From: Sediminibacterium sp.
Lineage (GTDB): Bacteria; Bacteroidota; Bacteroidia; Chitinophagales; Chitinophagaceae
Assembly: GCA_044337245.1 (NCBI GenBank)
Contig: JBIINW010000001.1
Location: 9,528-73,527, forward strand
Direction of reading: 5' to 3'
DNA length: 64,000 nucleotides
Position 1 is the stretch's first letter. Each line of letters starts with the position of its first letter. The notes under the pieces were generated by a model. The model was not told where the DNA came from and did no database searches. It saw only the letters and a list, made by a program, of their open reading frames with translations. The translations under genes and the position numbers were made by a program. Shown piece by piece: positions 3,803 through 19,135 of this stretch.

Positions 3803-5755
3803 TTAGGGTTTCTTTACCCAATCGTCTGTTCTAAACGGGGAAGCCGGTATTCCTTCCTTGTTATAAAGATTACATCCTTTGGGATTATTGGCCCAAGCAT
3901 AGCGAACTGCTATGGGTTCTGATATTGCATCGCTTTCTACCCTTACTTTATTTTTACCGATTATCGTAGCGGTAGCCCAAACAAATTTTTTATCGGCCCC
4001 TGCAATCGCAAATTGCTGAAGCGGTTGATCTCCGGTGGCTATCAATCCCGATCCGGCATGGCGGAAGGTTAACTCTATTGCTTTTCCTTTTTTAGTAAAA
4101 GAGGCTAATTCGGGACCAGAGTAAACCAAATTATTTTCTTGATAGGCAATTTTTCTGGCTGCCAGTGCAAGGCGGTCGCCTACTTCTTTTTTATTCAGTG
4201 GATGCACATCGTAGGTTTCACCTATATCGATGGTTACTGCTAAGCCTACATTGGGTAAGTCCATTGCTGCCTGTTGCTGTGCTTCGCGCAAATTTGCCCA
4301 ACCACTTTCGCCGGGTTCCTTTACTATTTCCATGTAATTAGCTAGCTGTACAATCAAAAACGGAAAATCGCCCTGCTGCCATCGGCTGCGCCAATCTTTT
4401 ATAAGTGCAGTTAACAGTTGCCGGTAATCACCCGCCCTTCCCCCATTGGATTCTCCCTGATACCAGGCCGCGCCTTTGATGGTGTAAGAAATTAAGGGAT
4501 GTATCATGCCATTATACAAGGTAATGGGCTGGGTAAACATTTTAACAAAACTAGCAACGGGTAGGGGTGCTACCAGGTTACCCGCAGCATACTCCCAATT
4601 TCCGGCTAAGCTTACCTCACTATCTTTAAATAGTAATCGATATTTTTTTTCTGCTATAAATCCTCCATTCCCATCGGTATCTACAATACGAACAGTAATC
4701 GTGTTGTTACCTTCCTTTAAAAAACCAGCGGGTACTTTATATTTTCGGGCTACATAGCGGTTGGTGCTATACCCTACCAGCACCCCATTAACATAAGTAG
4801 AGTCCGCATCATCAATCATCCCCAATTCTAACCAGGCTTCCGTACTTGCCTGTTGCGCAGTAAGTGCAAATTTCTTTTTACACCATACTACGCCATCCGC
4901 ATCTTTTAATCCATATTTTTCCCAAAAACCCGGCACCTGCATGCTACCTATATTATTTGCAGGAAAGTCGTTCTGTTTCCAATTATTTTCCGGTAGCCTT
5001 CCCTTATCGCCTTCCTTTGCATCTTTTTGCCATTGATTGGTAACCGTTCGTTCCCGAGTAATGGCTGCTTTCATATTTATTGAATCCTGATAAAAATGAT
5101 AACGCTCGAGATAACCAGAAAAATCACGTAACCCCTCTTCACTAATCCAAGATTCGGCAGGGGTTCCGCCCCAGGTACTCTTGATTACCGCCATGGGTAC
5201 TTTATATTTTTCGTACAAAGCCTTTACCATAAAATAAGCAACCGCCGAAAAACTGCCGATATTGGCAGGATTAGCCACCCGCCATTTTCCATTTAGCACT
5301 TGGTTGGGATGTAAAGCATATTGCTGGTTTACCTGAAATTCGCGAATCATTGGATTATTTGAAGCAGCAATTTCGTCCGGATATTTTTCGGTTAGTTTGC
5401 CCATTATAAAATCCATGTTCGACTGGCCAGAGCATAGCCACACATCTCCCATTAAAATTTCACGAATGGTTTTGGTTTCCTTACCTGCCTGAATGGTTAG
5501 CGTATACGGGCCTCCTGAAGGGGTTGCGGGTAATTGCAATTGCCAACGTTGTTGTGAATCTGCCAAGGCTTTGAATTCCTTCCCATTAAAACTTACGGTT
5601 ACCGGACCCTCTCCATTCCACCAGCCCCAAATATTCACGGGCTTGTCTCTTTGTAAAATCATACTGTCACTCACCATTGCCGGCAAACGAAGCTGTGTCT
5701 TTCCGGCAAAAGAGATCAACAAAGTGAAAAACAATAAACAACGATATTTAGTCAT
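3803..5755 (-). CDS. Sialate O-acetylesterase-like (SASA/SGNH) secreted esterase
   Basis: Signal peptide, GDVWLCSGQSNM, WGGTPAESW, WYQGESN and DVHP motifs, with an inserted sugar-binding jelly-roll segment (LELGMIDDADSTYVNG). Confidence 0.88.
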   Translation of the reverse strand: MTKYRCLLFFTLLISFAGKTQLRLPAMVSDSMILQRDKPVNIWGWWNGEGPVTVSFNGKEFKALADSQQRWQLQLPATPSGGPYTLTIQAGKETKTIREILMGDVWLCSGQSNMDFIMGKLTEKYPDEIAASNNPMIREFQVNQQYALHPNQVLNGKWRVANPANIGSFSAVAYFMVKALYEKYKVPMAVIKSTWGGTPAESWISEEGLRDFSGYLERYHFYQDSINMKAAITRERTVTNQWQKDAKEGDKGRLPENNWKQNDFPANNIGSMQVPGFWEKYGLKDADGVVWCKKKFALTAQQASTEAWLELGMIDDADSTYVNGVLVGYSTNRYVARKYKVPAGFLKEGNNTITVRIVDTDGNGGFIAEKKYRLLFKDSEVSLAGNWEYAAGNLVAPLPVASFVKMFTQPITLYNGMIHPLISYTIKGAAWYQGESNGGRAGDYRQLLTALIKDWRSRWQQGDFPFLIVQLANYMEIVKEPGESGWANLREAQQQAAMDLPNVGLAVTIDIGETYDVHPLNKKEVGDRLALAARKIAYQENNLVYSGPELASFTKKGKAIELTFRHAGSGLIATGDQPLQQFAIAGADKKFVWATATIIGKNKVRVESDAISEPIAVRYAWANNPKGCNLYNKEGIPASPFRTDDWVKKP

Positions 5756-5813
5756 GTCGGTATTTTAAAGTGTTCGGTTTTCAAGATACGTTTTTAGCAT
5801 AAAACAGTCACCC

Positions 5814-7634
5814 TTATGAAAAATAATATAAAATCCAAATAGTAACCCCTGCCAGCAAGGCGGAATAAAAATCAGTTGAATGCAAAAAGGGTTGCCTTTT
5901 TATTTCGGTTTTAGCACGAGGAGAAAAATAGCGGAGTCCGGCAAATAACGCCGCAGTAAACAGTGCTGCCGGCCAGGATAAGGAAGCAGCCGTAAATCCA
6001 GCATATATCAAACAGCCGAAGAAAAGATGTCCGCCAACAAAAAATGAAATTGGCAGCACCATTTTTTTGGCTGAACCCATCACATCCATATCATTTACCG
6101 GAATGTTTGAAGGCTGTTTTTTATTTAGCCAATAAGAAAGAATAGATTGAATCATTATACATCCAATGAACACAATCATTACCCGGTGTAAGAAATTAAT
6201 ATGCTCACCCAAATAACTATGCAGGAGGGGGATGGATGAAAAATAGTGGTCGTAACTATATTCAACTGCCCAGCTTAATAAAGGAGAGATGATTAATACA
6301 GCCACTGCCGAGGAAGGATGTATTTTTTTAAAACATACGCCCATAAAAAATACCGTAACAATACCCGGCTTTAGGTAGGAACTATTTTTAGAAAGCACCA
6401 GAAAAAAATTGCCGCCCGATGTGGGGGTGAATGTAACGAATGCAAGTACTGCAGCCAAAGCAGTTAATATTACCACAAACCATCTTCCTGCTAAAACCAA
6501 TTGTTGGTCGGTAGCATTTCGATGAAAGTATTGCTGATAAATATCTACCGTTAATAAAGTAGAAGCTGCATTGAGCATAGAATAAATACTCGAAAAAATA
6601 GCCGCTGTTAATCCGGCCAATATCCAACCAAATAAACCATATCCTGCAGGAACCACTTTACTCATTAATACCAGAAATGCATCATCGGGCTGAACGCCCT
6701 CTAAGTGCCAAGTATATTTAAAAAGATAAGCAGCTGCCACTCCTGCAGCAATGGAGAAAAAGGGAATGGTAAGTTTTAAAAATCCCGCAACAATCGCTCC
6801 CAGTTGTGCATCGCGATTGGTTTTGGCAGAAAGTACCCGCTGCACTTCAAACTGATTGGTGGTCCAGAAAAATCCCTGTAATACCAAGAGTCCACTAAAT
6901 ACCCCAGTCCAGGGAAGGTCGGGATGATTAGTTGGCAGATACAATTTCATCTTGTGTTGCCCCACTGCACTAGTATCAAGATGCAGTAAGCCCGACAAGC
7001 CCCCAATTTCTGCTCTACTCAGCGTTAGCCAACCTACTATTACCAAAGAAGATACCATCAAAACAGTAATCATATTTTCCGAAACAACCAGCGATTGCAT
7101 TCCGCCCCAGCAAATCAGGCAACAGGATATCACAGCGATACAGAGAATCCCCTGCAGGTAGGAGAAAGTGAAGTTGCCCACTGTAAATAACAATCCCAGT
7201 TGGCGACTGCCAATATATAAACCACCCACCAATAAAATAAGAATGATACCAATGATGCAGATACTGTAGATCAATCTAGCCCCGGAATTATACCTGTGTT
7301 CCAGATAAGCGGAAAGGGTAAATACGCCTCGCTGTCGATAAACCGGAATAAACACATAGCAGAGAAATATGATAGCGGGGATGGCCAGTATTTCGTAATG
7401 ACTTTGCGCGAATCCGATGGAATAGCCAATACCGAGCATGCCGATAATTTGAGATAGGCTCACATTGGCTCCATAAATGGACCCGGCTACCGACCACCAG
7501 CGTAGGGTTCTACCGGCCATAAAATAATCTTCCGCATTTTTCTTTTTCCTACCTGCCCAGATACCGCATCCCACTAAATAAAGCGTTAGTGCTGCAAAAA
7601 CCAACCAATCTGTAAACCCCAGCAATTGTAGCAT
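5814..7634 (-). CDS. Sodium:solute symporter (SSS/SLC5, sugar-transporter-like)
   Basis: EDYFMAGR, WGGMQS and NQFEVQRVLSAK motifs, more than 13 hydrophobic segments. Confidence 0.9.
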   Translation of the reverse strand: MLQLLGFTDWLVFAALTLYLVGCGIWAGRKKKNAEDYFMAGRTLRWWSVAGSIYGANVSLSQIIGMLGIGYSIGFAQSHYEILAIPAIIFLCYVFIPVYRQRGVFTLSAYLEHRYNSGARLIYSICIIGIILILLVGGLYIGSRQLGLLFTVGNFTFSYLQGILCIAVISCCLICWGGMQSLVVSENMITVLMVSSLVIVGWLTLSRAEIGGLSGLLHLDTSAVGQHKMKLYLPTNHPDLPWTGVFSGLLVLQGFFWTTNQFEVQRVLSAKTNRDAQLGAIVAGFLKLTIPFFSIAAGVAAAYLFKYTWHLEGVQPDDAFLVLMSKVVPAGYGLFGWILAGLTAAIFSSIYSMLNAASTLLTVDIYQQYFHRNATDQQLVLAGRWFVVILTALAAVLAFVTFTPTSGGNFFLVLSKNSSYLKPGIVTVFFMGVCFKKIHPSSAVAVLIISPLLSWAVEYSYDHYFSSIPLLHSYLGEHINFLHRVMIVFIGCIMIQSILSYWLNKKQPSNIPVNDMDVMGSAKKMVLPISFFVGGHLFFGCLIYAGFTAASLSWPAALFTAALFAGLRYFSPRAKTEIKRQPFLHSTDFYSALLAGVTIWILYYFS

Positions 7635-7644
7635 GTAGTTAATA

Positions 7645-8808
7645 TTAGCGAAGGGAAGCGGTGGTGAGTGGAGTTATGGGGGTGGAGGAAGGTTTTCTTC
7701 CCTGCAGCACATTCAGCTGTGCCAGAGAAAGTTGAGGCAAAATATGTTCGGCAACCAAACGAGCTTCTTCCAACAGCGGATAACCCGACAAAATAAAGGA
7801 ACGAATACCCATATCCATGTATCGATTAAGTTTGGCCACAATTTGAGCAGGGGTTCCAACCAATGCGCCACCACACCCGCTGCGGGCACGACCAATGCCC
7901 ATCCAGAGATTGGGTTCTACAAAATCATCCGCATCGGCTTGTTGGTTTCGGAGCGCATCTTGTCGCTTTACTCCCTCCGATTGGGCATCCTGGGCTCTGT
8001 TTTTCAAATTGAGGGTATGCTCATCAAAGCGGCTCATGATATGCCGGGCATAGTCTCGGGCTTCCTGTTCAGTTTCTCTTACGATAATATGTATGCGCAA
8101 TCCAAAATCGATTGTTCGGTTTTCCGCAGCTGCCCGCATGCTCATATCCTGCATGGTTGCATAGATACTTTCTTCTGTTTCGGGCCACATCAAAAATACA
8201 TCACAATAGCGGGCACATAAATCACGCGAACCGGGAGAAGTTCCGCCAAAATACAGCAGCGGTCCGCCATTTTGCTGATAGGGCTTTACGGGATCAGTTG
8301 AAAGCTGTAAATCAGTATATACTTTACCCTGATGATGGATGGTATCTTTCGTCCAGGCCTGTTGCAGAATTTCAATCACTTCCGCACAGCGTTGGTATCT
8401 GAATGCTGGATCTTCGCGCAACCCGGGTAAATCAGAATTGATGATATTAATCGTGAGTCGCCCCTCCAACAAATGGTCGAGCGTGGCAATATGCCTTGCC
8501 AGCATGGGGGGATGAATTTCTCCGGTTCTGATGGCAAGCAGCAAATTCATTTGATGGGTACTTCCGGCCAAGGCAGCCGCAAAGGGAATTCCCTCTTGCC
8601 CAACCATATAGGAGGTTGGCAACAACAAATTCTTAAACCCCTGTTGATCAGCCAGTTGGGCAATTGAACTGCAATGGGCAGCATTACTTCGCCGACTTTC
8701 ATCCAATACGCCCAAGAATTCAGTATCACCCCCGCATAAATCATCGAACCAAGCAACTTCACAGCTGCGGGCGGCAGTTCGGATGGGTACACAAGTATAT
8801 GTTGCCAT
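7645..8808 (-). CDS. LLM-class flavin-dependent monooxygenase, SsuD-related and resembling sulfoquinovose monooxygenase SmoC
   Basis: ATLDHLLEGRLTINII, KPYQQNGGPLLYFGG, CDVFLMWPE and LWMGIGRARSGCGGALVG motifs. Likely start MATY at 8808. The SmoC resemblance is from recollection of that family, not a search. Confidence 0.85.
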   Translation of the reverse strand: MATYTCVPIRTAARSCEVAWFDDLCGGDTEFLGVLDESRRSNAAHCSSIAQLADQQGFKNLLLPTSYMVGQEGIPFAAALAGSTHQMNLLLAIRTGEIHPPMLARHIATLDHLLEGRLTINIINSDLPGLREDPAFRYQRCAEVIEILQQAWTKDTIHHQGKVYTDLQLSTDPVKPYQQNGGPLLYFGGTSPGSRDLCARYCDVFLMWPETEESIYATMQDMSMRAAAENRTIDFGLRIHIIVRETEQEARDYARHIMSRFDEHTLNLKNRAQDAQSEGVKRQDALRNQQADADDFVEPNLWMGIGRARSGCGGALVGTPAQIVAKLNRYMDMGIRSFILSGYPLLEEARLVAEHILPQLSLAQLNVLQGRKPSSTPITPLTTASLR

Positions 8809-14089: not shown

Positions 14090-14228
14090 AAAAATCAGGT
14101 GGTGGCCACGAATGGAATTCTTGCTGGCATGCAGGGAATCAATAATCTACCACCTCAAAAATGGGAGATAACAAAATAGTAAGTCCTCAAATAGAGCACA
14201 CTCATCATCACTCTCACGCTGTAATTTG

Positions 14229-14300
14229 TGGCCTCGCCAAGAATCGAACTTGGATCTGGAGCTTCGGAAACTCTTATACTATCCATTGTACTACGAGGCC
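14229..14300 (-). tRNA. tRNA-Arg(CCG), intact copy
   Basis: Minus strand folds as GGCCTCG TA GTAC AATGGATA GTAT A AGAGT TTCCGAA GCTCC AGAT CCAAG TTCGATT CTTGG CGAGGCC A. Anticodon CCG; CCA is not encoded. Confidence 0.93.
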
Positions 14301-14306
14301 GGGGTG

Positions 14307-14314
14307 CAAAAGTA
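14307..14314 (-). promoter_or_regulatory. Bacteroidota sigma-A -7 box upstream of the intact tRNA
   Basis: TACTTTTG on the minus strand matches TAnnTTTG, 6 bp before the tRNA 5' end. Confidence 0.7.
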
Positions 14315-14509
14315 ATATTTCGGCGCTAATTCCTTGCTTATTTCGGTATGATAAGCGGTTTTCTACTTAAATTAAGTAATAGTCGTGGAAATGGAACCCA
14401 ACACACCCCCTTAACTGAGATATTAATACAATTTCCCGGAGGGGGCGGGAACCAAAAAATTCACTCTCCCAATATTTCACACTCACCCCCACTCTCAAAC
14501 TGTATTGTG

Positions 14510-14601
14510 TGGCCTCGCTAAGAATCCCTGCCTGCCGGCAGGCAGGGAACTTGGATCTGGAGCTTCGGAAACTCTTATACTATCCACTGTACTACGAGGC
14601 C
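14510..14601 (-). pseudogene. tRNA-Arg(CCG) second copy, disrupted by a 20-bp palindrome in the T-loop
   Basis: Identical to 14229-14300 except for the insertion at 14527-14546, a T-stem substitution (CTTGG to CTTAG) and one D-loop substitution. Confidence 0.88.
14527..14546. mobile_element. Ultra-short perfect palindromic insertion CCTGCCTGCCGGCAGGCAGG
   Basis: Absent from the paralogous tRNA copy. Inserted at the centre of TC^GA with no target-site duplication. Mobility is inferred. Confidence 0.75.
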
Positions 14602-14608
14602 GGGAGTG

Positions 14609-14616
14609 CAAAAGTA
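14609..14616 (-). promoter_or_regulatory. Bacteroidota -7 box upstream of the disrupted tRNA copy
   Basis: TACTTTTG on the minus strand, duplicated together with the tRNA. Confidence 0.65.
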
Positions 14617-14724
14617 ATATTTCGGCGCTAATTCCTTGCTTTTTTCGGTGCGACAGGTGGTTTTCTACTTAAATCAGGTACTATCAGAGGGAAGAAAACC
14701 AGCTCCCGCCTTAATTGATATCAT

Positions 14725-15879
14725 TTATAGCATTTCCTGGAGGGCAGCGGGTAAAAAAACGCGGGTGGGCACACTGGTCATGATGGAGAAATCATCCCCT
14801 AGAGATGACTGATTATCTAAAAACCGGAAAATACGTTGTACCGGATTCTTCCGGAAAATGGCAGCGAAAATCTGATCACCTGCCATCCGTTCATTGCTGA
14901 GTACATTCAATAAAACACTATCATATAAACGGTTTTTTTGCGTTGAAAAACTTATAGGGGATGAGTTTACATTGCCCGCCTTCATGAATCGAACCATTTC
15001 ATCGGCCTTTTTTTGTATAAACTGAAATGCATACCCACTGCTGGCTTTTACCTGTCCGCCCGCAGTTCCGATATACCTAACCGGCCCCTCTTGTTGCGTA
15101 AAGCGATGATTCGTCATGGGAATAACACCCCCTTCGATATGTTCAATAGTATAGGAATCTTGGGTGATGTATTGCTCTATATAACTTCGCAAGGCTTCAT
15201 CATAGGCTTCTACAGAAAGCAGGTCACCCGAAAACAACGTATATTCTACCAAAGCTTTTCGCTTAGTTACGGGTAAAACATATACAAAAGTGGTACCTGC
15301 TTGCTGACTCACCCGAAAGTCCATAAAAGTAGCCATATCAGGTTGAAAACAATCCTGGGAGGTTTCTATGAGCCAGCCCTTAAAGTGCTGCAATAAATGA
15401 TAGGCACCTGATTGGTTGGCCGAAAGGCTGGTTTCTGTAAACAGGATACTATTTACCACAAAAGGGGCAGTAACATTTCCGGAAGCAAGCTGAACAGTAG
15501 CGATGCCATTGAAATGGGTGATACCAAGCACCTGTTCGGTTTTCCAGGTGATCAGGGGGCGGGTAGCGGCCAATTCCTGCACTCGAGTGTAAAGGTCTAT
15601 TCCACGTATCATCTTATACTGATAAGGAGCCAGTGGGGCTGCAACAGAAAATCCGTTCGAATGAAATTCCAACTGATTCCAACGATGAAAAACAATCGAC
15701 TCAAAAATACCCGGCTGCTGCTCCCAGAAACACCAGGTTCGGTCGTTGGTATTTTTTGCAGCAGCATCTATCACCAATATTTTTTTATCGGCAAAAAAAT
15801 CATCCAGCATCATGCGCATCAGCACACTCATACCTGCACAACCGGCACCAGTAATAATATAGTCGTAGTTTGTATTCAA
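14725..15879 (-). CDS. crtY: Lycopene beta-cyclase
   Basis: YDYIITGAGCAGMS dinucleotide-binding motif, NDRTWCFWE, IGTAGGQVKASSGY; lies in the carotenoid cluster. Confidence 0.88.
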   Translation of the reverse strand: MNTNYDYIITGAGCAGMSVLMRMMLDDFFADKKILVIDAAAKNTNDRTWCFWEQQPGIFESIVFHRWNQLEFHSNGFSVAAPLAPYQYKMIRGIDLYTRVQELAATRPLITWKTEQVLGITHFNGIATVQLASGNVTAPFVVNSILFTETSLSANQSGAYHLLQHFKGWLIETSQDCFQPDMATFMDFRVSQQAGTTFVYVLPVTKRKALVEYTLFSGDLLSVEAYDEALRSYIEQYITQDSYTIEHIEGGVIPMTNHRFTQQEGPVRYIGTAGGQVKASSGYAFQFIQKKADEMVRFMKAGNVNSSPISFSTQKNRLYDSVLLNVLSNERMAGDQIFAAIFRKNPVQRIFRFLDNQSSLGDDFSIMTSVPTRVFLPAALQEML

Positions 15880-15909
15880 TGAAAGAAAATTTGTTAGCTG
15901 GTAGGAAAA

Positions 15910-16377
15910 TCAGTGTTGTTGCAGTTGCTCATCCCTTTTTACTTTTTCCCAGTACTCGCGGGCAACCCATAACATACCAAAGCTTTCGCCTTCTTCCTTT
16001 CCCAAATGCTTGTGGTGCATTTTATGGGCCCAGCGGATCACTTTAATATATCGATTGTTGCTGCGTGAAAATAATTTGAACCGCTGGTGTATGATGATCT
16101 CATGTACCAAAAAATAAGCAAACCCATACATGGCTATACCAAAACCTATACCAACCGCCCAGTAATTGCCCTTCATGCTGCCGAGCATAATGCAAAGCCA
16201 GCTGGGTATGGCAAAAATCAAAAAGAAAGCATCATTTTTTTCGAAAAATCCTTCTTCTTTTTGGTGATGGTCTTTATGCAAATACCACAGAAACCCATGC
16301 ATCACATACCGATGGGTAAGCCATGTAACTGGCTCCATTACTAAAAATGTTAACAGGGCAACCAAAACGTAGATCAT
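15910..16377 (-). CDS. crtZ: Beta-carotene hydroxylase
   Basis: His boxes HRYVMHG, HKDHH, HEIIIHQR and HKMHH, plus FEKNDAF. Confidence 0.92.
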   Translation of the reverse strand: MIYVLVALLTFLVMEPVTWLTHRYVMHGFLWYLHKDHHQKEEGFFEKNDAFFLIFAIPSWLCIMLGSMKGNYWAVGIGFGIAMYGFAYFLVHEIIIHQRFKLFSRSNNRYIKVIRWAHKMHHKHLGKEEGESFGMLWVAREYWEKVKRDEQLQQH

Positions 16378-17066
16378 AGCGTATAAAAAGTTCGGATGGC
16401 GAAAAAGAACAAAATCTGTATAAACAACAAATTTACAGCGAATTGGTTTACTTTTTTAAAGCCACTCTGCTGGAAAACCAGCATCAACAGGGCACTGATG
16501 ATAAACCAGCACACATAATTGAAAATGGGAATGCTCCCCTGCAGCCAGGTCCAATACCCCAATTTTACCGCTGCAGGCTCTAGAAACCAGTCAAATAAGG
16601 TAGCCAGCAAAGCCGAATCTACAATCAATGAAAATTGCAACCAGCGCTCGGGAATCTGTTCCGAACTTGGGCCTATCCATTGCAATAATTTTTCATGCAC
16701 CAACATCATACATTGACCACTACACCAAACTACCAAAAACCAGTTTACCCCTATCAAAAAGGGCACCCCCTTTACTCCGGTACCCAACAAGGTACCATAT
16801 CGATACTCCCCAAATAGTAGACCAGTATTCACCCCAATCATTTCAGTAATCATACCCACTCCAAATGCCAGCAGAGCAAACCAATAAAATTTGGCAGTTC
16901 TTTCATTATTGGTCCACAATAATAAACCCAACATTACACAAAGGTTTACTGGCGTCATTTGTATAAACCAATCGCTGTAAGTGCCGGTAATCATACCCAG
17001 CACCCCGCTCACATGAAAGAGCAGGGCAACAGACGTAGCGATGATAAATTTAGACTGACCCTCCAT
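16374..17066 (-). CDS. cruF: Carotenoid 1,2-hydratase (CruF/DUF422 family)
   Basis: EMIGVNTGLLFGEYRYG, GVPFLIGVNW, DWFLEPAAVKLGYWTW and PIFNYVCW motifs. ATGA overlap with crtZ. Confidence 0.8.
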   Translation of the reverse strand: MEGQSKFIIATSVALLFHVSGVLGMITGTYSDWFIQMTPVNLCVMLGLLLWTNNERTAKFYWFALLAFGVGMITEMIGVNTGLLFGEYRYGTLLGTGVKGVPFLIGVNWFLVVWCSGQCMMLVHEKLLQWIGPSSEQIPERWLQFSLIVDSALLATLFDWFLEPAAVKLGYWTWLQGSIPIFNYVCWFIISALLMLVFQQSGFKKVNQFAVNLLFIQILFFFAIRTFYTL

Positions 17067-17075
17067 ACTATAAAA

Positions 17076-18614
17076 TTAATGCAGGGAATCAACAATATTG
17101 AGTATCTCCAATTGTTTTTGCCAGATGATTTTTTCTGTGATGGCTGCGCTGCTTAAACAAAGCGGTATACCACCTCCGGGGTGCACACTTCCGCCTACGA
17201 AATACAATCCGGGAATCTGATTACTGAAATTCGGGTGCCGCAAAAAAGCCGCCAGCTTCGAGTTAGAGCTGGTGCCATATAAAGAACCACTATACGAATC
17301 GGTGAGAGATTCTATACTTACCGGATCGGCAACGGTTTCGGAAACAATCAAATCTTCTACCGAAATACCCAATATCCTACTCAGTTTTGCAATAATTCGT
17401 TCCCGCGATTGCTGGCGAAATAGTTCCCAATCCTGACCTACATTGGCAGGAACATTAATCATCACAAACCAGTTTTCCATTCCTTCGGGAGCCTGCACAC
17501 CCGGTTCGCACTTAGAAGTGATATTAATATACACGGTAGGATCTTCGTACAAGGTTTTGTGTTTGAACAAATGGGTAAACTCTGATTGATAGTTGCCGGA
17601 GAAAAAGATATTGTGCAGCGATAGTTGCGGAAAACTTTTCCGTATACCCCAGTAAAAAATCATAGCACTGCTACTGCGTTCTTGTTGCAGAATTTTTTTA
17701 GCTGCTACTGGTTGTTGCAATAAACGCAGGTAAGTAAAATAAACATCCACATTGCTAATTACCCAATTGGCGGGAACTACTTCACCTCCTACTTCTACGC
17801 CGGCTGCTTTCCCTTCGGATAAGATGATTCGGGTAACGGGACGATCGAAATAAAACTCCACACCCAGTTTTACGGCTAACCGATGTAATGCTCGGGTAAT
17901 AGTAATCATTCCACCCTTCGGATAAAAACTCCCCTCATTATGTTCTAGGTGCGAAATCATAGTAAGCATGCCGGGGGCACTGTAGGGATTACTGCCGTTG
18001 TAAGTGGCATATCTGTCGAACAACTGCACCGTTTTCGGATTTCGAAAAGATGATTGGTTGAGGGAATGCATGGAACGAAACAAATGCTTCCAGCTGGTGG
18101 CAGCAATGGCTGGGCCTATAGCAGCATCCTGCAAGGTAGATGACTTGTGCAGCGAATGCGTTAAAAATATATTACCAACCTGTTTGAATAAGCGATTGGC
18201 TTTTTGCAGGTAGCTCATGATATCCGACTCTTTTTCTCCATGCTTTAACGCCAGTTCCAATGCCAATAATTCTTTATCTGCATAGGCTTTCACCATTGGG
18301 CCATCTTCATAAAAATAATGGCAGGATACCGGTAATTTTTCATAACTGAAATAAGCCTCTATAGGTTCTCCGGCCAAAGCAAACAATTCTTCTATTAGGT
18401 GAGGGCGGGTAAATAAACTGGGGCCTGCATCAAACTGAAAGCCATCTTTTTCAAAATGATGCAGTTTGCCTCCGGGGAAGGAATTTTTTTCAAATACTTT
18501 TACCTGAAATCCTCGGCAAGCCATTCGGATAGCGGTTGCCAAACCGGCCACACCGGCACCGATAACAATTACTTGTTGCTCTTTAGGTAAGAGAGGAGTA
18601 GATTTTTTTTTCAT
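17076..18614 (-). CDS. crtD: 1-hydroxycarotenoid 3,4-desaturase
   Basis: GAGVAGL FAD motif, FDAGPSLFT, FDRYATYNGS and GGSVHPGGGIPLCLSSA. Second desaturase in the cluster, beside cruF. Start moved to ATG 18614, overlapping the idi stop. Confidence 0.82.
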   Translation of the reverse strand: MKKKSTPLLPKEQQVIVIGAGVAGLATAIRMACRGFQVKVFEKNSFPGGKLHHFEKDGFQFDAGPSLFTRPHLIEELFALAGEPIEAYFSYEKLPVSCHYFYEDGPMVKAYADKELLALELALKHGEKESDIMSYLQKANRLFKQVGNIFLTHSLHKSSTLQDAAIGPAIAATSWKHLFRSMHSLNQSSFRNPKTVQLFDRYATYNGSNPYSAPGMLTMISHLEHNEGSFYPKGGMITITRALHRLAVKLGVEFYFDRPVTRIILSEGKAAGVEVGGEVVPANWVISNVDVYFTYLRLLQQPVAAKKILQQERSSSAMIFYWGIRKSFPQLSLHNIFFSGNYQSEFTHLFKHKTLYEDPTVYINITSKCEPGVQAPEGMENWFVMINVPANVGQDWELFRQQSRERIIAKLSRILGISVEDLIVSETVADPVSIESLTDSYSGSLYGTSSNSKLAAFLRHPNFSNQIPGLYFVGGSVHPGGGIPLCLSSAAITEKIIWQKQLEILNIVDSLH

Positions 18615-19135
18615 GCCACTTGCTGCCAACTTAACCAATCCGCTAATTTTGGAAATGCGATATGAAACCAGGGGGTAAATTCTTGAGGTTGCTGAGTAAT
18701 CAATTCGTGAATTTCATCTACGTATAGATACTTATAGTCTGCTACTTCAGCAGAGTTCGGTTGAACAGGCCCATCGTAGTATCCTACAAATACATGATCA
18801 AATTCGTACTCAGTTAATCCGTTGGAAAAAGTTGCTTTATAAACAAAGTCAAACACTTTTTTCAAAGGGGTAGTAAAGCCCATTTCCTCCTGTAAGCGGC
18901 GAGTGGCAGCAGCAATGGTTTCCTCTTCGGGGCGGGGATGACTACAACAGGTGTTAGTCCACATACCGCCACAGTGATATTTTTCAGCAGCCCTTTGTTG
19001 CAAGAGTAGTTGACCCCGATTATTAAATACAAAAACGCTGAATGCCCGGTGTAACGAAGCGCTGCGATGGGCCTCCATTTTTTCCATGGTGCCGATGGCT
19101 TCATCCCGCTCATTTACCAGTATCAGTTGTTCCAT
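18611..19135 (-). CDS. idi: Isopentenyl-diphosphate delta-isomerase (type 1)
   Basis: HRAFSVF, WTNTCCSHP, RRLQEEMG and EYEFDHVF motifs. Confidence 0.95.
   Translation of the reverse strand: MEQLILVNERDEAIGTMEKMEAHRSASLHRAFSVFVFNNRGQLLLQQRAAEKYHCGGMWTNTCCSHPRPEEETIAAATRRLQEEMGFTTPLKKVFDFVYKATFSNGLTEYEFDHVFVGYYDGPVQPNSAEVADYKYLYVDEIHELITQQPQEFTPWFHIAFPKLADWLSWQQVA

Follow-up and report, generated by a model that had tools for sequence, protein, structure and literature searches.

A perfect 20-bp palindrome, CCTGCCTGCCGGCAGGCAGG (hereafter PAL), interrupts one member of a tandem pair of tRNA-Arg(CCG) genes in a 64,000-nt stretch of a Sediminibacterium sp. genome (assembly GCA_044337245.1, contig JBIINW010000001.1, positions 9,528 to 73,527 of the forward strand), the whole of which is called the window below. 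The identical 20-mer is found in other genomes, in viral contigs and in metagenomes, and comparison of these sites shows that it is a precisely inserting, mobile palindrome with a preference for loops and stem junctions and with hot spots in tRNA genes. It is also a near-constant component of a cassette embedded in tRNA genes, which carries an open reading frame (ORF) for a 79-residue protein with a GIY-YIG domain. PAL is most likely one copy within a family of ultra-short, non-autonomous mobile palindromes, of which the exact 20-mer is the active form. As to how it moves, the explanation we prefer, with moderate confidence and on the strength of sequence comparisons, is that the GIY-YIG protein is the nuclease partner that mobilises it.

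The insertion in Sediminibacterium

PAL occupies positions 14527–14546, and the TC and GA of its target extend it to a 24-bp palindrome (14525–14548) with 12-nt arms that are 100% complementary and have 0 nt between them. The interrupted tRNA-Arg(CCG) copy (14509–14601, minus strand; 73 nt plus the 20-nt insert, at C56^G57) is the upstream one in tRNA orientation. Its intact paralogue (14228–14300, minus strand) represents the empty site and the functional spare, and is the sole tRNA called by ARAGORN and Rfam (RF00005, 59.7 bits); the PAL-bearing copy is not called. Only three things distinguish the two copies, namely PAL at TTC^GATT, a T-stem change 8 nt 3' of PAL in the disrupted copy (14519, minus strand; CTTGG to CTTAG in tRNA sense, leaving a C-A mismatch), and an A-to-G change in its D-loop (14587, minus strand), at a position that is polymorphic among strains. 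When the filled and empty copies are aligned, no target duplication appears and the junctions allow one placement only. Once the PAL block is deleted in silico, ARAGORN calls a 73-nt tRNA-Arg(CCG). With PAL in place, the predicted RNA fold contains a 10-bp hairpin and the cloverleaf is lost, the two junctions meeting at the foot of a single uninterrupted 10-bp helix. These results agree with a sequence-only reading of the window, which had described a perfect palindrome, lengthened to 24 bp by its flanks, inserted into a T-loop without target duplication and forming a hairpin on the T-arm.

PAL is single in the window, even when 3 mismatches are allowed, and shuffled sequences gave no match (0/100). 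There is no GIY-YIG ORF within the 64 kb, and the 208-nt spacer between the tRNA copies contains no remnant of a nuclease ORF in any frame. No intrinsic terminator was called at the PAL site, and PAL has no U-tract. According to the alignment of the two tandem units, the second, some 280 bp upstream in tRNA orientation, comprises promoter region, tRNA and trailer. Their approximate cores are 14202–14376 (unit A, minus strand), with the intact tRNA, ∼75 nt of upstream region and the 3' trailer, and 14483–14677 (unit B, minus strand), the counterpart with PAL, which is duplicated further in strain L236 and relative L296.

The neighbouring dihydroorotase is 86–87% identical to its counterparts in metagenome-assembled genomes of Sediminibacterium, which places the organism in the Chitinophagaceae. 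Most of the independent JGI and ENA metagenome contigs that encode an identical dihydroorotase carry an intact tRNA copy together with a PAL copy. One strain (L236) has an intact tRNA-Arg and two PAL copies, another (L239) has one tRNA-Arg that is free of PAL, and a third (L244) has a single-nucleotide polymorphism immediately adjacent to PAL. Because independent assemblies, strain variants and this polymorphism all show PAL, it is a genuine genomic feature and not an assembly artefact, and the authenticity assumed by the sequence-only reading is borne out.

More distant relatives (L246, L255 and L296) retain the order of PAL copy followed by intact copy. In these, the tRNA part 5' of PAL matches the live gene fully, while the part 3' of PAL has mismatches, a deletion or a 64-nt insertion. 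The window locus displays the same asymmetry, conserved 5' of PAL and decaying 3' of it, that is typical of the cassettes described below, and the CTTAG variant at 14519 is found in L246 too. PAL itself is unchanged (20/20) in four diverged relatives, the spacer being clearly diverged between two pairs of relatives. The PAL of the window is most likely a solo copy that inactivates a redundant tRNA-Arg whose 3' part is in decay. What makes the insertion tolerable is the intact downstream tRNA-Arg copy, as foreseen in the description of PAL as a minimal selfish insert that survives thanks to a backup; the strain with a single tRNA-Arg lacks PAL.

Occurrence of PAL

Across a species-representative genome collection, the exact 20-mer is found at at least 120 loci in about ten bacterial phyla. 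The range covers Patescibacteria and other lineages of the candidate phyla radiation (CPR), Omnitrophota, Bacteroidota, Planctomycetota, Gamma- and Deltaproteobacteria, Bdellovibrionales, Thermodesulfovibrio, Chloroflexi and others; isolates with exact PAL include Winogradskyella, Flagellimonas, Longitalea and Flavivirga. A further 35 stretches of viral contigs carry it, with a maximum of six copies on one 29.5-kb contig, while composition-matched control palindromes (arm-swapped and arm-reversed) gave 0 matches each in viral contigs. Searches of cultured phages, of plasmids and of 5,426 E. coli genomes gave no exact PAL. The expectation that PAL would prove to be a repeated mobile element rather than a unique sequence is borne out, and its supposed restriction to Bacteroidetes has to be given up. 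No description of the PAL sequence, of the element or of the GIY-YIG cassette was found in the searchable literature, outside of which many subscription papers lie.

Among the matches listed, there are usually one or two exact copies per 8-kb locus, and almost every match is on a separate contig. Exact copies are accompanied by diverged, nested and tandem ones. Nested self-insertions occur at CCG^G, one base off the centre of PAL, that is, in its own apical loop. One locus ends in ten tandem 21-bp units of CCATGCCTACCGGCAGGCAGG (L154, 3915–4124); at L485, upstream of the ORF, the PAL arms are split by a 21-nt insert, and nested or structural variants were also seen at L018 (1059–1098), L042 and L021.

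Sites in tRNA genes

A metagenome scan with the pattern TTC+PAL+GA, which itself favours T-loops, returned at least 120 loci and 132 sites. Among the matches listed, 46% of the TTC^GA sites are T-arm-like (a stem of at least 4 bp and a 7-nt loop); by our estimate, T-loops make up a small minority of genomic TTCGA sites. Removal of PAL restores a complete tRNA at 12 of the listed sites, 10 of them tRNA-Arg, and in 12/12 the insert lies 16–18 nt from the 3' end.

About 30 pairs of filled and empty sites, each compared with an adjacent intact tRNA, show zero target duplications and four to five recurrent positions. These lie after nt 13/14 (GTTC^AATGG, or GCGAA^ATTGG in tRNA-Leu), after nt 20–22 (GGATA^GAAT, GGTA^GAGC), after nt 26 (GAATA^GAAG) and after nt 55 in the ARAGORN count (GGTTC^GATTC), the last being the C56^G57 T-loop site of the window. 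All of them correspond to a loop or a stem junction of the cloverleaf, and the 3' flank of PAL in tRNA sequences is almost always GA or AA. The tRNAs involved include Arg (CCT, ACG, TCT, CCG), Asn, Leu (three anticodons), Met and Thr. PAL also fills 3' tRNA fragments with no nuclease gene in cis (L327, L290).

Two PAL-bearing tRNAs stand within tRNA arrays with no spare copy nearby. In the first (L299, 8150–8180, on a 975-kb contig) PAL sits in the T-loop of a tRNA-Asn(GTT) whose pairing is otherwise perfect; in the second (L280, 1005–1035) it sits in the T-loop of a tRNA-Ile(GAT) with one apparent T-stem mismatch. At the corresponding place in the L280 array there is a tRNA-Asn without PAL.

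Other GC-rich palindromes share the tRNA sites of PAL or occur next to it. One of them, TCCGCCAGAGGCGGA, is related to TCCGCCAGCTGGCGGA and is found at the T-loop TTC^ in tRNA-Arg fragments of relatives of the window; another, TCCCGATAGCTATCGGGA, is lodged in tRNA T-loops within two tRNA arrays and also in one dead copy of a tRNA. Such palindromes were noted at L168 (1410–1470), L246 (10370–10433), L255 (∼880–960), L280 (∼1290–1310), L299 (∼8480–8500), L424, L016 and L062. There may be several palindrome families, PAL being one of them. In viral contigs, TCCGCCAGCTGGCGGA matched 55 stretches, mostly of GC-rich, coding-looking DNA with no GIY-YIG nearby, and these matches were set aside because a 16-mer is insufficiently specific.

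Sites elsewhere

A sample unbiased with respect to flanks comprised ∼165 exact PAL sites (166–167 in individual tests). Here the flanks are diverse, position −1 being A in 43% and T in 11%, with +1 mirroring −1; GTAG precedes PAL at a few sites only. The sequence ^GA, on either strand, adjoins 19% of PAL sites against 12% of controls (p = 0.005), and TC^GA was found at 1/166, so a fixed TC^GA rule is not general. The proposed C^GA or TC^GA target thus describes the hot spot in T-arms, and the GA or AA flank within tRNAs, but does not extend to PAL sites at large. An ORF of at least 150 codons spans 42% of PAL sites and 85% of controls, a depletion. PAL is over-represented within the loops of other hairpins: flanking stems of at least 7 bp were found at 6.7% of sites (1.4% of controls), the insert mostly abutting the stem, and strongly periodic repeats, mostly of period 7, at 5% (0.13% of control positions). 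About one site in ten lies in or beside tRNA sequence (hand count), mostly a fragment or a spare copy near an intact gene. A tRNA profile in nhmmer detected tRNA near 6/160 solo PAL copies against 1% of controls, the profile being insensitive to decayed fragments.

Tandem repeats of similar heptamers (GTGAGAG, TTAGAGG, TGAAAGG, AATTACG, TCTAAAA) lie beside PAL in unrelated contigs of phages and bacteria (L121, 10590–10660 and 11210–11330; L144, L150, L050, L082, L101, L129). Heptamer-like G/T-rich runs are also present in the window, directly 3' of both tRNA-Arg copies (14196–14222 and 14466–14500), and read GTGAGAG TGATGAT GAGTGTG and GAGAGTG GGGGTGA GTGTGAA on the minus strand.

The GIY-YIG cassette

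At many loci PAL is part of a recurrent layout, in which a tRNA 5' part split by PAL is followed by the 79-residue GIY-YIG ORF and then by an intact copy of that tRNA. Examples involve tRNA-Lys (L037), tRNA-Gly (L106) and tRNA-Arg(CCT) (L304, L344, L327), and some arrays have 2–3 units. The ORF matches PF01541 (GIY-YIG) with E = 5e-13 and 8e-14, and the Tyr, Tyr, Gly, Arg, His and Glu columns are conserved. There is no specific NCBIfam model for it, an intron endonuclease family matching far under the cut-off, and no solved structural relative was found by sequence.

The association was also examined in reverse, from 80 loci picked by GIY-YIG similarity alone, ignoring PAL, by a narrow query alignment. 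This sample is mostly Bacteroidota, with Levybacteria, Woykebacteria, Paceibacterota, Chlorobiota and Gammaproteobacteria; cultured carriers of the protein include Terrimonas pollutisoli H1YJ31 (L421), Hanamia caeni BO-59 (L445) and Pedobacter psychrophilus CCM 8644 (L457). Of these loci, 32/80 contain exact PAL, nearly always 30–110 nt upstream of the ORF, and an intact tRNA directly follows the ORF at 49/80. Where a tRNA comes right after the ORF and enough upstream sequence is available, a dead copy of it stands upstream in 47 of 48 cassettes, and 45 of the 47 dead copies contain an insert. In almost every case this insert is PAL, exact in 24, or differs from it by 1–3 changes. The cassettes span Bacteroidota, three CPR lineages, Chlorobiota and Gammaproteobacteria, and their proteins are just 50–60% identical. 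Starting from PAL, a GIY-YIG domain is found within 300 nt at 28 of the 132 TTC^GA sites (among the matches listed) and at 7/167 sites of the flank-unbiased sample. This tight association overtakes the earlier view that so small an element recruits no obvious enzyme. The HUH/RAYT enzymes named there as candidates fared differently, since no such gene was seen adjoining PAL: all-against-all clustering of ORFs from 155 PAL loci revealed neither a recurrent HUH family nor any other recurrent family, the clusters, limited to ORFs of at least 90 aa, consisting of phage structural genes only. The 79-residue ORF was missed there because it falls below that cut-off.

PAL marks a sharp boundary within the dead copies, 1.1% of their positions differing from the live tRNA 5' of PAL and 5.1% 3' of it (p = 3e-5). 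PAL variants in cassettes show about 4% change per position (hand tally). Given these three values, PAL copies seem to be born exact and to decay later. From the sequences, PAL appears to be old and neutral, as does the 3' remnant, and the 5' part fresh or constrained, an asymmetry that fits a cassette of PAL, old 3' remnant, ORF and tRNA 5' part entering tRNA genes at the PAL site. On the sense strand, the variants of L421–L500 have ∼17 C-to-T and ∼5 G-to-A changes (hand tally, inflated by shared ancestry).

The stop codon of the ORF is the TAG at nt 8–10 of the downstream tRNA (L304, 4830–5060; L344; L037, 2160–2410; and most of L421–L500). With the stop inside the tRNA, cleavage of the tRNA 5' end by RNase P would sever the message ahead of it, which might, speculatively, serve the gene as a means of limiting its own expression.

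Surroundings of the tRNA-Arg pair

A carotenoid gene cluster adjoins the tRNA pair of the window (14725–18638, minus strand), with a lycopene cyclase (PF05834), a carotenoid synthase (PF04240) and an FAD-dependent oxidoreductase. In strain L239, an extra gene for a 449-residue thioredoxin-like protein (4475–5824) lies between the dihydroorotase gene and the lone, PAL-free tRNA-Arg. The 64-nt insertion in the PAL-bearing tRNA-Arg of L255 (∼460–530) is hairpin-rich and located between the T-stem and the 3' acceptor strand; its motif CTGACGAT...ATCGTCAG recurs in tRNA fragments of L168.

How PAL may move

If the GIY-YIG protein mobilises PAL, it would cut tRNA-like DNA at loop sites, and PAL would be copied in from another PAL-bearing tRNA-like sequence, the conserved D-arm and T-arm flanks serving as short homology in a homing-like gene conversion. 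A short repair tract would copy PAL alone and give the exact pattern of the window, where PAL would have struck the T-loop hot spot in the upstream one of the two tRNA-Arg(CCG) genes. By an alternative route, the nuclease may cut and rejoin an extruded PAL hairpin, which would also cover the copies outside tRNAs. Enzymes of the GIY-YIG class include structure-specific nucleases of the SLX1 type and homing enzymes of the I-TevI type.

A wider proposal, which we put forward tentatively, is that PAL and the 79-residue nuclease form an undescribed two-part mobile system, made up of a tRNA-homing cassette and a palindrome spread in trans. The autonomous cassette would home into tRNA genes of diverse bacteria and make the tRNA whole again by supplying a 5' part of its own, while the nuclease would recognise PAL with almost absolute specificity for its sequence and spread it in trans into tRNA loops and other hairpins. 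Since its targets, the D- and T-loops of tRNA, are universal, such a system would be able to cross phyla.

Several points weigh against mobilisation by the GIY-YIG protein. The link between PAL and the nuclease is correlative. The window contains no GIY-YIG ORF, and in the unbiased sample only 7/167 sites come within 300 nt of one and roughly 10% are near a tRNA. Cassettes generate dead tRNA copies, and these could be the sole tRNA targets in which PAL is tolerated. Homing-type copying fails to explain PAL in heptamer repeats and in unrelated intergenic DNA, and the presumed target site persists in the live tRNA of each cassette. Finally, judged from the sequences, an intact PAL beside a diverged spacer at the window locus is easier to reconcile with selection or repeated re-insertion than with a scar in passive decay.

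The main alternative, to which we assign a minor share of the probability, is that PAL is moved by another agent (an unlinked HUH/RAYT-like enzyme, a structure-specific nuclease, or host replication and repair) and that cassettes merely supply dispensable tRNAs. That PAL fills dead tRNA copies with no nuclease gene in cis, in the window and its relatives and in the 3' fragments of L327 and L290, speaks for it, as do the distance of most exact copies from any GIY-YIG ORF and the presence of other palindromes at the tRNA sites of PAL. The window, with PAL and no nuclease gene in 64 kb, is compatible with this explanation and with the nuclease alike. The cassettes speak differently: a PAL-type insert is present in 45/47 dead copies from several phyla and forms the exact boundary between conserved and decaying sequence, which resembles the cassette's own biology, and neither HUH nor another recurrent protein family (ORFs of at least 90 aa) was found near PAL.

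Improbable, in our judgement, is a selected functional module, in which PAL would be an operator or binding site of the nuclease, or an RNA hairpin that could block folding of the truncated or spare tRNA, stabilise or process the downstream message, or yield a 5' tRNA-fragment RNA. It would account for a PAL that is unchanged in four relatives despite spacer divergence, for an intact promoter and tRNA part 5' of PAL while the 3' part decays, and for a position 30–110 nt upstream of the nuclease ORF; changes in PAL on the sense strand are, moreover, mostly C-to-T and so preserve G-U pairs (hand tally). However, the C-to-T excess would arise equally from transcription-linked mutation bias or deamination, in variants that share ancestry, and cassette PAL variants have diverged about as much as the adjacent neutral tRNA remnant. 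Lacking a U-tract, PAL is no intrinsic terminator, and hundreds of solo copies in unrelated contexts, together with nested ones, imply mobility.

Very improbable is behaviour as a hairpin intron, in which PAL, once transcribed as part of the tRNA, would be excised or else tolerated, leaving the tRNA functional. The only hints of it are the tRNA-Asn(GTT) of L299 and the tRNA-Ile(GAT) of L280, which are otherwise intact or nearly so with no adjacent spare. Yet a bulge-helix-bulge is impossible, since the two junctions share the foot of a single helix, and there is nearly always an intact neighbour copy, a decaying 3' part in the PAL copy and a lost cloverleaf in the predicted fold. We know of no bacterial enzyme that removes such hairpin introns.

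That PAL is an artefact, whether an adapter, a linker or an assembly error, or that GC-rich terminator hairpins converged on it by chance, can practically be dismissed: a constant perfect palindrome in many unrelated assemblies, some of low coverage, might arouse that suspicion, but PAL is carried by isolates and by assemblies from different groups and technologies, shows strain variation, tandem duplication of the filled unit, diverged and nested copies and precise insertion into tRNAs, and, against convergent terminators, matches 35 viral stretches where control palindromes match 0, with no U-tract and no terminator called.

Relation to known elements

The nearest likenesses are to REP/REPIN sequences with their RAYT partner and to homing cassettes, and by analogy PAL and its putative nuclease would resemble either only loosely. 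Like REP, PAL is a short, GC-rich, dispersed and mostly intergenic palindrome, non-autonomous, found beside a dedicated small nuclease gene, with a hairpin or single-stranded DNA as the likely substrate. REP sequences, however, are imperfect (20–40 bp), tagged with GTAG/CGTC, lineage-specific and present in tens to hundreds of copies, and their partner is an HUH Y1 enzyme (RAYT, TnpA-REP). PAL, in contrast, is a perfect and untagged 20-mer, identical across phyla, usually seen once or twice per locus and directed at tRNA loops, and the gene that recurs beside it encodes a GIY-YIG nuclease, no recurrent HUH family having been found among ORFs of at least 90 aa at the 155 loci.

Free-standing GIY-YIG homing endonucleases, such as I-TevI and the Seg proteins of T4 (for example SegB, which acts on a tRNA gene region), likewise have a small nuclease gene in or beside a conserved gene, a target that stays functional, and distantly related hosts. 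A GIY-YIG catalytic domain and insertion into a conserved gene that is kept functional are both found at the loci related to the window, and the fresh 5' arm with an old 3' remnant would fit repeated homing. The known free-standing enzymes carry an added DNA-binding domain; the 79-residue ORF, unlike them, appears to be the GIY-YIG catalytic domain alone, with putative cleavage activity. To our knowledge, no homing GIY-YIG enzyme has an invariant 20-bp palindrome where the DNA is broken, or restores its target through a copy of the tRNA 5' part. The one indirect hint that the putative nuclease would cut unfilled tRNA alleles at or close to the PAL site is that PAL lies on the border between conserved and decaying tRNA sequence.

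MITEs (miniature transposable elements with inverted repeats) and IS200/IS605 derivatives are also non-autonomous, mobilised in trans and hairpin-forming, and the IS200/IS605 family shares the lack of target duplication. MITEs are 50–500 bp long, with terminal inverted repeats and target duplications, whereas PAL has 20 bp in total and no duplication in the tRNA pairs. In IS200/IS605 derivatives the left and right hairpins differ from each other, and insertion takes place 3' of a set tetranucleotide, whereas PAL is a single palindrome with a weak flank preference outside tRNAs. As an intervening sequence in a tRNA gene PAL recalls tRNA introns, which in Archaea may lie in T- and D-loops. Archaeal introns form a bulge-helix-bulge, a geometry lacking in the predicted PAL fold, and bacterial group I introns are ribozymes of at least 200 nt in the anticodon loop, in contrast to 20 nt in the T-loop with no Rfam match at gathering thresholds. 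Decay 3' of the insert and adjacent intact paralogues are further differences from introns. The name SPIDR, given in the sequence-only reading for such palindromes, is used in the literature as an early name of CRISPR, which consists of direct repeats and unique spacers; PAL is single in the window and has only the word palindromic in common with it.

The accessible text on mobile GC clusters of yeast mitochondria and on hairpin elements of sponge, placozoan and fungal mitochondria (PMC4478555, PMC2800124, PMC7813641) describes very short GC-rich hairpins that spread singly and do not encode their own enzyme, much like PAL. As far as that text goes, those elements are organellar and family-specific, whereas PAL is bacterial and viral, identical across phyla, aimed at tRNA loops and accompanied by a candidate nuclease.

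Implications

Letter-for-letter conservation of 20 bp across about ten phyla and phage contigs, next to a protein that is only 50–60% identical, is unusual. PAL-type inserts account for tRNA genes overlooked by tRNA finders and for arrays of tRNA pseudogenes in Bacteroidota and CPR, and PAL could serve as a simple marker of the element in metagenomes. If the link to the GIY-YIG protein is true, an enzyme partner would have been found for a class of ultra-short palindromes, the same question standing for the mitochondrial GC clusters and hairpins, and the pair would be a minimal, highly specific combination of nuclease and site that is readily assayed in vitro. The cassette would then be a very compact homing element with tRNA genes as universal landing sites, and the two-part system, if it exists as proposed, would be the GIY-YIG counterpart of REP/RAYT.

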